Part shown: positions 41,270 through 60,856 of the stretch, piece after piece
Layout of the letters: the number at the start of each line of letters is the position of its first letter
Position numbering within the stretch: position 1 is the first letter of the stretch
Source of the DNA: a plasmid
Length of the DNA stretch: 64,000 nt
Assembly (NCBI RefSeq): GCF_053078305.1
Contig: NZ_CP166875.1
Direction: 5' to 3' (one strand)
Translations under genes and position numbers: made by a program
The notes under the pieces: model-generated
The model's input: only the letters and a program-made list of their open reading frames with translations
Databases searched by the model: none
Told to the model about the DNA's origin: nothing

Positions 41270-41660
41270 CATCGTCACGACTGCCGGGTCAGCCAGGTCA
41301 TTTCCCGGAGGAGCGAAGCTCCTTCTGCCGTCCGGGTCTTCGGGGATTTCCCCGCAGTGGACCTTTCCGATGGGGGCCCGTTTACCGCCTCACGGGACAG
41401 CTGTCCGGGGGCGGACGCAAAATTTTTAGCCGGGTTCATGGCTAAAAATTTTGTGGCCGGTGCATCTCACCCTGGACAGATGGAACGGGAGGGGGTTACG
41501 TCTGCCCCCTGGAAAGTCCACAGCGGGAAACAGGCCGCAGGGGTGGCGGCAGGAGGGAAGACTGCTGCGCCATCAGGCGCAGTTTCCTCACACACCGTCA
41601 GGTGTGCAGGGAGCGCAGGTCACGGCGCGACTGAAGAAAAACGACGGCACAACAATGGCA
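41270..41660 (-). promoter_or_regulatory. repeated hairpin element, family A copy 1 (Frpo/ssi-like ssDNA promoter candidate)
   Basis: Shares blocks with 44690-45070 and 60050-60420; contains perfect hairpin AAAATTTTTAGCC / GGCTAAAAATTTT. Confidence 0.4.
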
Positions 41661-42117: not shown

Positions 42118-42324
42118 CTACTGCTCATCAGGAAACAGCTTTTTCAGTTCTTCACCGGAAAGTCCCGTGACCTCCTGAATCCGTTCCGGCGGCCAGCCTA
42201 TATCCCGCAGCCGGCAGGCTATTTCCCGCGCCACTTCAAGAACCCCTTGTTTAAAACCTTCTTTAAAACCTTCTTTAAAACCCTCGTCGAAACCTTTCTG
42301 TATAAGACGTTCTGCAATCGTCAT
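42118..42324 (-). CDS. stand-alone small protein resembling an Rpn C-terminal domain (RpnS-like)
   Basis: SD AGGAG before ATG; resembles the C-terminus of the adjacent Rpn (TIAERL..KG...TGLS.EEL.K); contains KEGF x3 tandem repeat. Confidence 0.45.
   Translation of the reverse strand: MTIAERLIQKGFDEGFKEGFKEGFKQGVLEVAREIACRLRDIGWPPERIQEVTGLSGEELKKLFPDEQ
42249..42287 (-). repeat. 12-bp tandem repeat x3 encoding (GFKE)n
   Basis: ttctttaaaacc repeated three times on the + strand. Confidence 0.8.
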
Positions 42325-42386
42325 GCTGTTTGCTCTGCTCCTGCTGGCAAAAAAGCCCGGGATTTTGCCGGGCTTTGTGGTTCTCA

Positions 42387-43301
42387 TCAGTGAGTGATTT
42401 TCTTCAGTTCGTCATCGGAAAGTCCGGTAGCCTGCTTAATCTGCTCCGGCGTCATCCCCATTTTCTGAAGCTGGCACGCAATAGCCAGGGCTTTTTCAAG
42501 CGCTCCTTCCATGCGTCCTTCCATCCTGCCTTCCTGGCGACCTTTTTGCTCAAGACGTTCTGCGATAGTCATCAGTTTATCCTCATGCTGCGGCAGACGC
42601 TCAGCCAGCGCCCGCATAAATTCCGGTGATACAGAGTCCCCTGCGTTAACGATGTAATGAATCAGAACACGCACCTGTTCATCTGAAATTTCCACCATGA
42701 CCTGCGGGAGTTTGTCCAGCAGCTCCATCATGTCACGATGGCGGATATGCTTCATCAGCAGCGTCAGTGCGGCCATCCGGCGATGGTTCATGATTTCATT
42801 GTCATCAACGACAGTGATATCAACCAGCGGAAACGGCTTTGTGTATATTTTAGCCGCAAGAGCCGGATTCTCAAAACAGCCCAGCCAGTTCATGCTGTAC
42901 GGGTACGGGCTGCGCTCACCGTGATAGAACAGCACCGGAATCACCAGTGGCAACGTTTTGTGCTGCTCCAGATGTCTCTGCATCGCCGCCACACTGTAAC
43001 GTAACATGCGAAAAGGCATGTACAGATTTTCGGTGCTCTGGTGCTCGATGAGCGTATAAACATAGCCGTCTTCACCCCCGGTGGTTTTCACGCTCCAGAG
43101 GATATCGCTGGCGTACTGATGCAGGTCCGGCTCTACAAAGGTGGCGGGTTCCAGCTTCAGCGTGGACAGGTCGCACAACTGCCGGTACTCCGCAGGAAGA
43201 TGCAGTTCCAGAAAATCTCTGGCGACGTCGGGATTCGCCAGGAACGACCGGAACGCGGCATCATGCGGCGTGGGCGTTGTGGTGTTTTTCTTCTTACTCA
43301 C
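42387..43301 (-). CDS. Rpn-family recombination-promoting nuclease (YhgA-like PD-(D/E)xK)
   Basis: 304 aa; N-terminal region typical of YhgA/Rpn proteins; C-terminal repeat domain QEGRMEGRMEG ... TGLSDDELKK. Confidence 0.65.
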   Translation of the reverse strand: MSKKKNTTTPTPHDAAFRSFLANPDVARDFLELHLPAEYRQLCDLSTLKLEPATFVEPDLHQYASDILWSVKTTGGEDGYVYTLIEHQSTENLYMPFRMLRYSVAAMQRHLEQHKTLPLVIPVLFYHGERSPYPYSMNWLGCFENPALAAKIYTKPFPLVDITVVDDNEIMNHRRMAALTLLMKHIRHRDMMELLDKLPQVMVEISDEQVRVLIHYIVNAGDSVSPEFMRALAERLPQHEDKLMTIAERLEQKGRQEGRMEGRMEGALEKALAIACQLQKMGMTPEQIKQATGLSDDELKKITH

Positions 43302-43687
43302 GGTTCCTCCATCAAATCAGCAGCATCGCAGCAATCATCGCCCAAATCCCCACAACCGAGAGGACAGCAATTGCGTTCAAAGCCATGACAACAATAGCCG
43401 CGTTCTGAGTCACGGCGTATTTCTTCAGCAATCTCTTCTGCGGAAAGGTAATCAAACTCCTCACGGGCCAGTTCCAGGACCAGTAGATGTTGTTCTGTCG
43501 GCAATGTGGCCACAAAATTATCAATAGCAGCACTCAAACGTCGCTGATATAGCTCATAAACAAGACCACAACGGGGCATTAGTTCTTCGGATAATAGTTC
43601 CAGTTTTGAGCGAATTCTGTCAGCGTTGAAAGTGACTTCATCAAAAGACATATGAAAAGCTTTGTCAGTATCAAAACAAGACTTCAT
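43298..43687 (-). CDS. hypothetical acidic protein with Cys-rich C-terminus
   Basis: SD GGAGG before ATG 43687; C-terminus CCHGFERNCCPLGCGDLGDDCCD. Confidence 0.4.
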   Translation of the reverse strand: MKSCFDTDKAFHMSFDEVTFNADRIRSKLELLSEELMPRCGLVYELYQRRLSAAIDNFVATLPTEQHLLVLELAREEFDYLSAEEIAEEIRRDSERGYCCHGFERNCCPLGCGDLGDDCCDAADLMEEP

Positions 43688-43863
43688 TGTTATCTCCAGC
43701 CCTCCCGGGCCCTGAATGAAAGAGAATCTGTTTCCCTTTTCTGTTTTTTGTGGAGACACCATGCAACACAGACGTCGTGATGTTTTTCATCTTGCTCACG
43801 GTTCCTCCTGGTAAAGTACCTGAACACATCCTGCCACCTGCACAGGCAGACGGCAGGGGTTAA

Positions 43864-44130
43864 TCAGTGACAGACCCGTTCAATTTCAAGCGCGCGGAGC
43901 AGGTGGCCCCATTCGCTGACTTTCATGGCGGGGATACGTACCCGCTTCTGCTCACTGCAGCGTCTGGCGATATGACCGCCCATCGCCAGGACGTCCGGGT
44001 TAATCTCATCCGGTGCCAGTTCCTGGCGTCTGAAGCGGGTATGGCGGTGCAGGGGTTTATTCTCCCGCAGGCACTCTTCACGCAGACGCTTTACATACTC
44101 GGCGGTTGCGAAGATAATTGATGGTCTCAT
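43864..44130 (-). CDS. hypothetical basic protein (88 aa)
   Basis: SD GGAG before ATG 44130. Confidence 0.4.
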   Translation of the reverse strand: MRPSIIFATAEYVKRLREECLRENKPLHRHTRFRRQELAPDEINPDVLAMGGHIARRCSEQKRVRIPAMKVSEWGHLLRALEIERVCH

Positions 44131-44222
44131 GGCATAATCTCCATAGTTAGTGAATGAGATGCCGGACTTCCGTACGGGGAAGCGCCGGCGGAGAGAGGCA
44201 GGGTTTATCGCCCTGCTTTTTT

Positions 44223-44657
44223 TCATTCCGGACAGCGACGCAGTGCCAGCGCGAGCGCTTTCATCTTCCAGCCTTCCGGCGTGCGGTACATCACCTTCCA
44301 GTAGCCGTCGATGAACACATAATGGAAGCGCACCTCTTCAGTGCTTTCCGTGGCGATGGCCTCCCTGAAAGAACGGTACTCACGCGCCTCACTGTCCATC
44401 CGGAAACCACTGTCACGTCCGTAATAAGCCGTCACACCGTCCACCGGGTTCTGAAGCGTATGCCCGGCGGGTTTGTCGCAACGGGGACCGAGGCAACGGA
44501 TATCACCGTGTTCAACCAGGGCTTCGGCCTGCTGACCGGTGGCATAGTGGGTATGCAGGATGCGACCGTTCCAGGTCGGCTCACCGTGCAGGTGGCAGTA
44601 AACGGTACGGAACACCCCGTCGCGGCAAAAAACGGAAATCGTGCTGCTGACTGTCAT
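44223..44657 (-). CDS. hypothetical leading-region protein (144 aa)
   Basis: SD AAGGAGA before ATG 44657; directly downstream of hairpin element A2. Confidence 0.45.
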   Translation of the reverse strand: MTVSSTISVFCRDGVFRTVYCHLHGEPTWNGRILHTHYATGQQAEALVEHGDIRCLGPRCDKPAGHTLQNPVDGVTAYYGRDSGFRMDSEAREYRSFREAIATESTEEVRFHYVFIDGYWKVMYRTPEGWKMKALALALRRCPE

Positions 44658-44689
44658 GAAAACGTCTCCTTCTGCTGAATCAGGTCGCC

Positions 44690-45070
44690 GGGCCGACCGA
44701 TTGCTCCCCCGGAGGGGCGAAAGCCCCTTCTGCCGTCCACTTCTTCGGGGTTTCTCCCCGCAGTGGACCTTTCCGATGGGGCAGCGACAGCCACGGCACG
44801 GGGCAGTTGTCCGGGGGCAGACGCAAAAGTTTTTGACGCTTGCGGCAAAAAGTTTTGTGGCTGGTACATCTCCCCCCTGGACGGCTGACACGTGTTGTGG
44901 CCGCTTCAGCCCCCGGAAAGTCCACAGCGGGAAACAGGCCGCAGGGGTGGCGGCGGAAGGGCAGACAACTGCGCCATCAGGCGCAGTTTCCTTACACACC
45001 GTCAGGTGTGCAGGGAGCGCAGGTCACGGCGCGACAGAGGCGGCGCGACCGGAACGGTCGCTGCAAGCCT
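44690..45070 (-). promoter_or_regulatory. repeated hairpin element, family A copy 2
   Basis: Same ordered blocks as copy 1; hairpin CAAAAGTTTTTG / CAAAAAGTTTTG with TTGACG in the stem. Confidence 0.4.
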
Positions 45071-45388
45071 GGTTTTTCAGACATCGGACCGTAGCGGCAG
45101 CCCGAAACCGCGCCAGCGGGTTCGGCGGAGACTGGCGGGTGCGCCAGCAGCTGCCTGTCGGAGTCGGGCCTGACGACCGGATGCCGCCAGGCAGCCGGGA
45201 GCCGAAGGTGTCCCCGCCTCCGGAAATCAGAACAACAGAAACGACATAACAGAAAAATGCCTCACACCATGACGGGCAGGAAGGGCAGCGCCGCAGGCGC
45301 GGCCCTCCTGCATTTCAGGCAGGCGTAAGCCTGCCAGGGTTTTCCGGCGGCCTGGCAGGCCATACCCCCGCCGGAGCGGGGGAGTAAA

Positions 45389-48485: not shown

Positions 48486-48830
48486 CTTACAGAGGGCACC
48501 GGGAGGGCCCCCCTGTGGTGCCCGTTCCCCGCTGCCTGTGGGCTGTTCACCGCGTCCGGTAACGGGTCAGGCCGACCGTGGAATACCGCAGCCGTCGTCT
48601 TTTTGACGGCAAGGTTATGCCGCGAAAGCGGCTTGAAGGGCGTTCATCAGAAAAGGGCGACGGGCTGGCGTACACTGTCACCGGTGCCAGCCGGGAGCGG
48701 TAAAAGCGCCCGTCCCGTGCCCGGCCGGACGCGGGACACTGACCACAGGCAGCGTTTATGCCGCGCCGCGTCAGCCGGCGCAGTAAAAAGAGGAGCACGG
48801 CGACATCCTTTGTCGGAAAAGAAACGGGCG
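48486..48830 (-). promoter_or_regulatory. long imperfect-hairpin element, family B copy 1 (Frpo/ssi-like ssDNA promoter candidate)
   Basis: Near-identical to 49800-50115; distal arms complementary (CGCTGCCTGTGG ... CCACAGGCAGCG); contains TTGACGG. Confidence 0.45.
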
Positions 48831-49799: not shown

Positions 49800-50115
49800 G
49801 AGCACCGGGAGGGAGCCCCTGTGGCGCCCGTTCCCCGCTGCCTGTGGGCTGTTCACCGCGTCCGGTAACGGGTCAGGCCGACCGTGGAATACCGCAGCCG
49901 TCGTCTGTTTGACGGCAAGGTTATGCCGCGAAAGCGGCTTGAAGGGCGTTCATCAGAAAAGGGCGACGGGCTGGCGTACACTATCACCGACGCCAGCCGG
50001 GAGCGGTAAAAGCGCCCGTCCCGTGCCCGCCGGACGCGGGACACTGACCACAGGCAGCGTTTATGCCGCGCCGCGTCAGCCGGCGCAGTAAAAAGAGGAG
50101 CACGGCGACATCCTT
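49800..50115 (-). promoter_or_regulatory. long imperfect-hairpin element, family B copy 2
   Basis: About 97% identical by eye to copy 1 over roughly 310 bp. Confidence 0.45.
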
Positions 50116-50159
50116 TTCCCCTGAACATCCGTCAGCCTTTCTCTGCGGCAAGATCAATC

Positions 50160-60049: not shown

Positions 60050-60420
60050 GTTCCCTCCGGTATTCACCATCACCTGTTTGAGAACCTTCGCCGCAAGGGG
60101 CATCACTGCCACGGCCGGAAACGACTGTCCGGGGGCAGACCGCAAAAGTTTTTGCCTGCTTTTGGGCAAAAAGTTTTGCGGGATGTGCATTTCACCCCTG
60201 GACTGGCGGAGACGGTTGTGGCTGTCTTTGCCCCCGGCGACAGGGGCTTAAACAGGTGTATGGCACCGGACACAACAACGGGCAGGGACCCGCCGCAACG
60301 ACGAAGAGCGCGTGCGCGAAACGGCGTTGCCCCTTACATCCCGGCGGCCTTTTGCCGGGATGCCAGGAGCGCAGGCCACGGCGCGACAGAGGCGGCGCGA
60401 CCGGAACGGTCGCTGCAAGC
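60050..60420 (-). promoter_or_regulatory. repeated hairpin element, family A copy 3
   Basis: Shares the CAAAAGTTTTTG hairpin and the 60-bp block CGCAGG(T/C)CACGGCGCGACAGAGGCGGCGCGACCGGAACGGTCGCTGCAAGCC with copy 2. Confidence 0.4.
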
Positions 60421-60856
60421 CCGGGGTTTCGCGTCAGGGATGGAAGCCCGCCAGGGCGGAGACAGCTTCGCTGGCTCCGTTCACGACAGCCCGCCCCGCC
60501 TGGGGGACGCCCGGAAAAGGCATAAGCAGGAGAACAACAAAACAGACAATAATCAGGGCAGCAGTAATCAGAGTCAGAACAGGAGGAAAAAGAGAATAAT
60601 CAAAGGGAAGGTGATGTGATTTCCGACAGGTCATAAACAGAGAAGGCGGGGGAAAAGAACGGGCGCCGCAGGCGCGCGTTCATCCCCGTTCCCGGAGGGA
60701 ATCGGCCTTCCTGGCAGTCTGGTTGTTCATGCTGCTGCAATGTCAGCAAGGAGAAAGGGGCCACCGGCGAACCAGCAGCCCCTTTATAAAGGCGCTTCAG
60801 TGCAGTCAGACCAGCATCAGCCCTGAAAAGGCGGGCCTGCGCCCGCCTCCAGGTTG

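Follow-up and report, generated by a model that had tools for sequence, protein, structure and literature searches.

The leading region and its three small genes

The window, a stretch of 64,000 nucleotides (nt) of plasmid DNA (RefSeq assembly GCF_053078305.1, contig NZ_CP166875.1), carries three small open reading frames (ORFs) directly behind a long hairpin element. A sequence-only reading of this DNA had noted them, here called orf144, orf88 and orf129 after their lengths in codons, and had recognised none of the three. Database comparison now identifies them as ygcA, ygdA and a homologue of ccgAII. With the rpn gene that follows, they most likely form an oriT-proximal operon of the leading region. 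The main features of the locus are:

44658-45260, minus strand: single-strand promoter element of the Frpo/ssi type (class 1), the "A2" of the sequence-only reading; assigned by fold and homology
44223-44657, minus strand: orf144, ygcA (WP_000218862), widely mislabelled "PndC"
43864-44130, minus strand: orf88, ygdA (WP_001247860), a small basic protein with an isoelectric point (pI) of 9.90; name taken from pP44
43298-43687, minus strand: orf129, CcgAII homologue (WP_000833767), mislabelled "CbiX"; assigned by homology, an AlphaFold2 (AF2) model and Cys/His conservation
42387-43301, minus strand: Rpn-family PD-(D/E)XK nuclease (ygdB), last gene of the putative operon

The coordinates and composition given in the sequence-only reading are borne out, and all three ORFs are on the minus strand. 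The pI of orf144 is 7.05 and that of the acidic orf129 is 4.38; orf129 contains 29 Asp and Glu against 13 Lys and Arg residues, and seven of its nine Cys fall within residues 99 to 120 (YCCHGFERNCCPLGCGDLGDDCC). Length is weak evidence for such ORFs, because this GC-rich DNA has many overlapping ORFs of more than 100 residues in other frames. Each of the three, however, has a Shine-Dalgarno-like GGAG 6 to 8 nt upstream of its ATG, and the pattern of codon change is that of coding sequence for two of them: against ColIb-P9, pP44 and pEc631_1, respectively, synonymous to nonsynonymous differing codons number 6:1, 5:1 and 7:1 in orf144 and 7:3, 5:2 and 10:1 in orf88. Thus, orf144 and orf88 are under purifying selection, and all three ORFs are real genes. 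Longer database forms of two of them were discarded. The 251- to 258-residue form of orf144 ("PndC") is excluded by a family N-terminus that is invariant at M1, and the 5' extension in the 120-residue form of orf88 is put out of frame by indels in ColIb-P9, and its variation falls mostly on the first and second codon positions.

Far from lacking homologues, all three genes have them in large numbers. A gene 99% identical to orf144 is named ygcA in pP44, which has an R64-style annotation, and ColIb-P9 has ygcA as well; the gene is present in 2016 plasmid records, nearly always at 95% identity or more, and its product matches PHROG 1987 over residues 1 to 126 (E = 5.3e-21). orf88 is annotated ygdA in pP44. 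By tblastn it is found in more than 5000 plasmid records, about 2000 of them at 95% identity or more and about 3000 at approximately 45% identity over residues 29 to 88; the latter group includes a 76-residue IncF protein whose gene follows a copy of Frpo at a distance of 600 bp in pO26-L. Neither orf88 (searched in Pfam, NCBIfam, PHROG and PDB) nor this IncF relative (NCBIfam) has a match in protein family collections, and orf88 and orf129 have none in a collection of cultured phages. orf129 is 59% identical to CcgAII of R46 over 93 residues (tblastn, E = 4e-35; 55.6% over residues 26 to 106 in the plasmid-wide tblastn), its database relatives carry the name CcgAII, and alignments show that it has the core motifs YELYQRRLS, EFDY and C-x-H-G-x5-CCPxGCGD. 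CcgAII is encoded in 1319 plasmid records, 512 of them at 90% identity or more. F has no homologue of any of the three genes, and therefore YgeA of F, considered as a candidate YgcA, is ruled out.

The 2.3 kb around the three genes is 100% identical to the E. coli plasmid pDW54_2 (NZ_CP038793.1), which types as IncK2/Z, MOBP, MPF_I and conjugative. In the window, nikB and nikA lie at about 36.7 to 39.8 kb on the minus strand, with oriT next to them. From oriT the order is a yggA-type ORF, a DUF4942 gene, a helix-turn-helix (HTH) gene on the plus strand, a small Rpn-like ORF, rpn, orf129, orf88 and orf144, and beyond orf144 come ardA, psiA, psiB, a parB-like gene and ssb. orf129, orf88, orf144 and most other leading-region genes are on the minus strand and directed toward oriT. 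This gene order and the strands relative to nikAB and oriT place the 2.3-kb stretch in the leading region. The plus strand is the transferred strand (T-strand) and the template for the minus-strand leading genes, ygcA, ygdA and ccgAII among them.

IncI1 and IncI-gamma plasmids (ColIb-P9, with R64-type annotation, and pP44) share the order ardA, Frpo, ygcA, ygdA, rpn, small ORF, HTH, DUF4942, nikAB, with DNA 95 to 96% identical to the window upstream of ccgAII and more diverged (87 to 90%) on the rpn side. Unlike the window, which has a 463-bp insertion between ygdA and rpn, they lack ccgAII. The order in the window also matches the median positions from oriT of leading-region-enriched, T-strand-oriented families in Supplementary Table 1 of Samuel et al. 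2024: RpnB, 4; CcgAII, 5; YdaB/YdfB/YgdA, 6; "PndC", 7; and ArdA, 8. YdaB/YdfB/YgdA is family 1 of that study, the largest of those enriched in leading regions (4739 members), and is labelled uncharacterised. Placement of orf88 in it is based on the name and on median position 6; orf88 also has the expected homology to IncF and IncI proteins, lies few ORFs from oriT and is T-strand-oriented. "PndC"/YgcA, matched by name and position, is family 23, and CcgAII is family 65, with 715 members (Samuel et al. 2024).

Much of this is not new. An IncZ plasmid was previously described with these genes, in this order, and with the Frpo repeats (PMC3817090), and all three families are present, by name and position, in Samuel et al. 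2024. What is added here is the correction of two misleading names, a separation of the conserved from the non-conserved residues in the Cys cluster of orf129, a reconstruction of how ccgAII was inserted, and a link between the YgcA family, which has no solved structural neighbour, and large phages.

Hairpin element and putative operon

As the sequence-only reading held, orf144 lies directly behind element A2, with its start 70 nt downstream of a long imperfect hairpin. When plus-strand positions 44660 to 45080 are folded as DNA, this hairpin has a free energy of -132.7 kcal/mol (z = -9.6); its core lies at about 44726 to 44960 on the transferred strand. The element is homologous to known Frpo/ssi elements. 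The 603-nt spacer upstream of ygcA has a counterpart at the same place in ColIb-P9, with 92.6% identity over 606 nt, and a core of 68 to 70 nt is 93 to 94% identical to two sites in F. Further copies are present at 41304-41634 (83% identity to the ygcA copy) and 60097-60430 (68%), and the corresponding module of a close IncZ relative contains three Frpo-like repeats, R1-R3 (PMC3817090). The copy at 41304-41634 is the one nearest to oriT and lies upstream of the DUF4942 gene. A search of 38 to 60 kb against Rfam at the gathering threshold gave no match.

In the IncI1 plasmid pESBL, ssi1-3 were assigned to class 1 of the single-strand promoters and their transcription starts were mapped; the operons behind them reach an induction of up to about 500-fold at 15 min, and transient transcription from single-stranded DNA in new transconjugants has been shown for pESBL, ColIb-P9 and F (PMC12672017). 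By analogy, it is quite likely that ygcA, ygdA and ccgAII would be expressed early from a single-stranded template. The three ORFs resemble the Frpo/ssi-driven zygotic genes ssb, psiB and ardA of F, ColIb-P9 and pESBL in their T-strand-template orientation and in having a homologous hairpin upstream, and they share an island with ardA, psiAB and ssb. Unlike the three ORFs, ssb, psiB and ardA have demonstrated functions (single-stranded DNA binding, SOS inhibition and antirestriction, respectively) as well as measured induction. The suggestion in the sequence-only reading of a recipient-directed module behind the hairpin thus agrees with the context, namely a leading region, a transferred strand that serves as template and an Frpo/ssi-type element upstream.

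The extent of the operon can be judged from three further hairpins, of which the two with U tracts were folded directly:

44198-44223, either strand: hairpin directly after the ygcA stop; minus strand, -10.3 kcal/mol and no U tail; plus strand, -17.2 kcal/mol with a U7 tail
43830-43857, minus strand: 12-bp hairpin after ygdA, no U tract; -22.5 kcal/mol
42349-42373, minus strand: intrinsic-terminator-like hairpin with a U6 tail, directly after the rpn stop; -14.4 kcal/mol

In the direction of the genes, a U tract follows only the hairpin after rpn. The hairpin after ygcA has its U7 tail on the plus strand only, and so has the appearance of a terminator that opposes the operon. A consensus promoter and terminator scan, which was uninformative and missed the two visible U-tract hairpins, gave no sigma-70-like site between the genes on the minus strand. 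The overlap of the ccgAII stop with the rpn start also fits a common transcript. The simplest reading is a single unit that runs from Frpo through ygcA, ygdA, ccgAII (preceded by an upstream ORF, or uORF) and rpn to the terminator.

Such a unit suggests the following course of events. The plus strand of the window would enter the recipient first in conjugation, the element upstream of ygcA would fold, and host RNA polymerase would use the hairpin as a promoter. The operon would then be transcribed toward oriT within minutes of entry, before synthesis of the complementary strand, and transcription would end at the terminator after rpn. The three small proteins would act on targets in the recipient cell, so as to aid plasmid establishment or to counter host defences. 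We put the probability of this reading, that is, an oriT-proximal leading-region operon expressed early from the single strand whose products act on recipient targets, at roughly 0.6. Whether the role of the three proteins is specifically one in establishment or anti-defence seems an even bet.

Several points weigh against this reading. The expression results for pESBL and ColIb-P9 would carry over to the present plasmid by homology only, and the hairpins after ygcA and ygdA that lack U tracts could attenuate read-through or mark processing sites. orf129 appears to be under weaker constraint than its neighbours, with synonymous to nonsynonymous differing codons of 9:10. The literature searched contains no phenotype or tested function for YgcA, YgdA or CcgAII. 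The labels "antirestriction" and "prevention of RecA overproduction" attached to CcgAII occur only in secondary tables and text (PMC3817090, PMC3347995, PMC10446048), and CcgAII has no sequence or structural match to a known anti-restriction or anti-CRISPR protein (Samuel et al. 2024). Finally, the metal binding and the action as binders rather than enzymes that are proposed below derive from sequence patterns alone. In the same literature, the names ygcA and ygdA and the three WP accessions were not found in use.

An alternative is that the ORFs are neutral passengers that contribute to neither conjugation nor establishment. The lack of any reported phenotype would fit this idea, as would the absence of all three genes from F and the observation that conjugation of pO111-CRL115 in the laboratory, despite its lack of the 9.7-kb leading module, equalled that of pO26-CRL125 (PMC3817090). 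However, purifying selection is seen in orf144 and orf88, position and orientation are kept across thousands of plasmids with a statistically significant enrichment in leading regions, and CcgAII recurs near oriT on unrelated backbones. Neutrality is thus very improbable, and an operon that acts early in the recipient remains the preferred reading.

At present the finding confirms a gap that was already recognised and reveals nothing new. The three genes are nevertheless among the commonest passengers of first-entering DNA on IncI-complex, IncF and IncN resistance plasmids, and if any one of them blocks a host defence, it would represent an anti-defence family not known before and could be targeted to limit the spread of plasmids. 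For annotation, the practical points are that "PndC" and "CbiX" should be distrusted, that only four Cys and one His of the apparent CcgAII cluster are conserved, and that ccgAII is a cassette inserted exactly at the start of rpn.

The YgcA and CcgAII families

orf144 matches PHROG 23089 in addition to PHROG 1987, both of which contain phage proteins of unknown function, and the match spans nearly its full length. An exhaustive HMMER search extends the YgcA family to 1979 representative clusters (E<=1e-3) with the consensus MSTRSxI...YCHxDGY...GDxSxL...H(S/T)F...YGRDRG...EYxY...W. The conserved core (MSTRS...YCHxDGY) and the full-length profile both place orf144 in this family. Relatives are found in KVP40-like (T4-like), cyanomyovirus, GAP32-like jumbo and phiCbK-like phages, and on phage-like contigs they lie within arrays of small co-oriented ORFs. 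The predicted structure is a compact, confidently modelled fold with no close neighbour among solved structures; a Foldseek search of AFDB50 returns only uncharacterised or "PndC"-named family members. Pfam gives nothing significant for the three proteins, for an alignment of 50 YgcA members or for 20 longer family members, among which isolated fusions to WYL_2 and gp32-like domains are the sole matches.

Of 23 positions shared by at least 80% of the family, the window protein has 19. The exceptions, T3V, D24H, S54R and R83S, replace in the plasmid clade four polar residues that the family conserves, and this pattern hints at an activity that has changed or been lost. YgcA could instead be an active phage-derived enzyme, for example one that modifies a nucleotide, a nucleic acid or a small molecule, rather than a binder or decoy. 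The family does conserve a polar set (T3, H22, D24, S54, H66, R81, D82 and R83) within its compact fold, and H22, H66, R81 and D82 are still present in the window protein. However, the other half of this set is what the plasmid clade has replaced, and no relative in Pfam, in NCBIfam or among solved structures points to a chemistry. An active enzyme is therefore unlikely. Because four otherwise conserved polar residues are lost, YgcA would more likely be a binder, and it is most likely a degenerate, non-catalytic plasmid offshoot of a large-phage family.

The names under which two of these proteins are found stand in several GenBank and UniProt records: PndC, a post-segregational killing protein, for orf144 and CbiX, a cobalamin biosynthesis protein, for orf129. 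There is almost no chance that they are correct. PndC is the Mok-like leader ORF of pnd, a locus of the hok/sok type, and no hok-family gene was found by pattern search to overlap or lie near orf144. A search of the whole window with a Hok-motif pattern matches only at about 27.07 kb (a pndA homologue, some 17 kb away from orf144) and at about 60.9 kb (a hok homologue). For CbiX, a cobaltochelatase, no domain model matches orf129, which has no Pfam match even at E<=10 and no NCBIfam model; the name is therefore an annotation artefact. RefSeq labels both proteins hypothetical. The PndA homologue (MPQRTFLMMLIVVCVTILCFVWMVRDSLCGFRIEQG...) and the Hok homologue found by the pattern search are both encoded on the minus strand, and the latter adjoins the third Frpo-like copy (60097-60430).

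The name CcgAII was reportedly given by Delver and Belogurov in 1997 to the product of a "CUP-controlled gene" of the IncN plasmid R46/pKM101. The window and R46 proteins have a similarly acidic pI (4.38 versus 4.48) and the common motif C-x-H-G-x5-CCPLGCGD, and their genes are similarly placed, near oriT and on the downstream side of ardA. In R46, ccgAII is downstream of ardA and ccgAI and precedes stbCBA; in an IncF plasmid, it lies near oriT two genes before DUF932, SLT and traM. Thus, on IncN, IncF and IncK2/Z backbones the gene is always near oriT, and it is present on Proteus and Vibrio plasmids as well. The window protein differs from most relatives by about 25 extra N-terminal residues and by a clade-specific tail, DDCCDAADLMEEP. 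By blastn, similarity of the window cassette to the R46 region is confined to the coding sequence and does not extend into upstream DNA; no CUP repeat or promoter, as would mark the CUP-controlled, ArdK-regulated regulon of IncN plasmids, was found upstream of the window gene by this comparison. Unlike its R46 counterpart, the window gene has no ccgAI upstream, follows ygdA in a putative operon headed by Frpo and overlaps rpn.

The AF2 model of orf129 consists of four helices (residues 22 to 95), a Cys/His knuckle (96 to 113) and a disordered clade-specific tail, with the knuckle modelled at a predicted local distance difference test (pLDDT) score of 82 to 89. Among 25 diverse CcgAII homologues over which Cys and His conservation was scored, C99, H101, C107, C108 and C112 are conserved in 23 or 24 and C40 in 21. 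In contrast, C100 alternates with Ser, and C119 and C120 are confined to the IncI-complex clade; it is because of such clade-specific residues that the cluster of orf129 is denser than the family average. The possible metal binding noted in the sequence-only reading is supported, at the level of sequence, by the six conserved residues and not by C100, C119 and C120. A structural metal site, as in a Zn or Fe-S knuckle, is plausible because the Cys/His ligand pattern is conserved, and on balance CcgAII may well bind a structural metal ion through its conserved C-terminal Cys3-4/His knuckle.

CcgAII probably works by binding another macromolecule. The alternative proposal of the sequence-only reading, a DNA-mimic module, finds nothing in its favour: orf129 shows neither similarity in structure or sequence to an antirestriction mimic of the ArdA/Ocr type nor a DNA-like arrangement of acidic residues, and DNA mimicry is a distinctly remote prospect. 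NCBIfam has no model that matches any of the three ORFs, R46 CcgAII or CcgAI. When PDB sequences were searched with single sequences, with profiles and with the Cys tail by itself, no match was better than E = 0.003, the match at that value being a designed repeat protein. A PADLOC match of orf129 to PRTase_III-A (17 bits, E = 5e-4) was rejected as chance.

A bolder proposal would combine the two families, with CcgAII as a metal-dependent inhibitor of a DNA-targeting function of the recipient and YgcA as a degenerate phage early enzyme that serves as a decoy or binder. This combination is speculative and rather unlikely to hold in full. If it did, CcgAII, as an inhibitor of restriction, recombination or an Rpn-type nuclease, would define a new anti-defence family across IncN, IncF and IncI-complex plasmids, and YgcA would be a catalytically degenerate derivative of a large-phage early enzyme with a fold not yet among solved structures.

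Insertion of ccgAII and the rpn genes

The history of ccgAII in this clade can be read from its boundaries and from the small ORF that follows rpn:

43773-43808, minus strand: upstream copy of a 36-nt repeat, left boundary of the insertion
43311-43772, minus strand: low-GC 463-bp segment carrying ccgAII, absent from ColIb-P9 and pP44; defined by blastn breakpoints
43275-43310, minus strand: downstream copy, which provides the ribosome-binding site and start used by rpn
42118-42324, minus strand: free-standing RpnS-like small ORF, 68 residues from the ATG at 42324; annotated as 89 residues from 42387

Alignment to ColIb-P9 and pP44 by blastn stops at window position 43773 and restarts at 43310. 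The segment in between has a GC content of 42 to 46%, versus 57 to 60% in the flanks, and is bracketed by two copies of the 36-nt sequence GGAGGAACCGTGAGyAAGAwGAAAAACAyCACrACG, which corresponds to the rpn ribosome-binding site and first nine codons. The upstream copy opens a 42-codon uORF (43671-43799, minus strand) that ends 17 nt inside ccgAII. At the other junction, the rpn ribosome-binding site supplies the C-terminal DLMEEP of CcgAII together with the stop codon, a TGA that overlaps the GTG start of rpn (GTGA). This overlap exists because the insertion is at the start of rpn, within the bracketing repeat.

Traces of the same junction are seen elsewhere. One database gene call of 171 residues, from a variant at 91% identity (P0005), has the remnant of the rpn start in frame with ccgAII. 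An IncF plasmid has the same 36-nt sequence as an orphan remnant (L010:2790-2826), and the unrelated 80-residue HTH gene upstream of it ends ...PEEP* on GTGA. The recurrence of the 36-nt junction may mark a recombination hotspot at rpn starts.

Overlap of the ccgAII stop and the rpn start suggests translational coupling, which raises the possibility that CcgAII is tied to the adjacent Rpn as an extra inhibitor, chaperone or specificity factor of an RpnL/RpnS toxin-antitoxin or defence module. The arrangement is kept in about 500 records (504 cover at least 80% of the 2.3-kb query, and the 512 with at least 90% CcgAII identity give a similar count). In addition, Rpn is described as toxic and as tolerated only with RpnS (PMC10400941). 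However, the overlap arose when the segment inserted precisely where rpn has its ribosome-binding site and start, within the 36-nt repeat, and ColIb-P9 and pP44 have the same rpn and lack ccgAII. No adjacent rpn is found beside CcgAII in the inspected R46/IncN, IncN-like MOBF/MPF_T, IncF, Proteus and Vibrio contexts, and about 800 of the 1319 CcgAII records belong to more distant clades (<80% identity), which are the clades of those rpn-less contexts. A functional tie to Rpn is thus improbable. Coupling to rpn is instead a by-product of the insertion in this clade of about 500 records and not a trait of the family, and the preferred view of CcgAII is still that of a leading-region protein directed at targets in the recipient.

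The rpn product matches TIGR01784 with 178 bits (cutoff 52) and also PHROG 3300. It appears to retain residues of the PD-(D/E)XK type (ASD...IEHQ) and has an internal MTIAERLEQKG that resembles an RpnS start. The annotated 89-residue ORF that follows (42118-42387) includes, within its first 40 nt, the terminator hairpin of rpn, and the real product is probably the 68-residue protein from the ATG at 42324 (MTIAERLIQKGFDEGFKEGFKEGFKQG...). This RpnS-like ORF is 55.6% identical to the C-terminus of Rpn over 63 residues, and NCBIfam Rpn models match it weakly; its four-residue repeats are DEGF/KEGF, versus QEGR/MEGR in the C-terminus of Rpn. The neighbour in the window is like the RpnL/RpnS toxin-antitoxin and antiphage nucleases of Zhong et al. 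2023, being an Rpn nuclease whose C-terminal helix has four-residue repeats and which is followed by a separate RpnS-like copy. This likeness concerns the neighbour and not the three ORFs, and the passages of Zhong et al. 2023 (PMC10400941) that were consulted mention no CcgAII-like partner.

Farther from oriT, the window contains a direct repeat of about 316 nt (48496-48811 and 49802-50116). The two copies are 97 to 99% identical and 1306 nt apart, in and at the start of the ParB-like gene.

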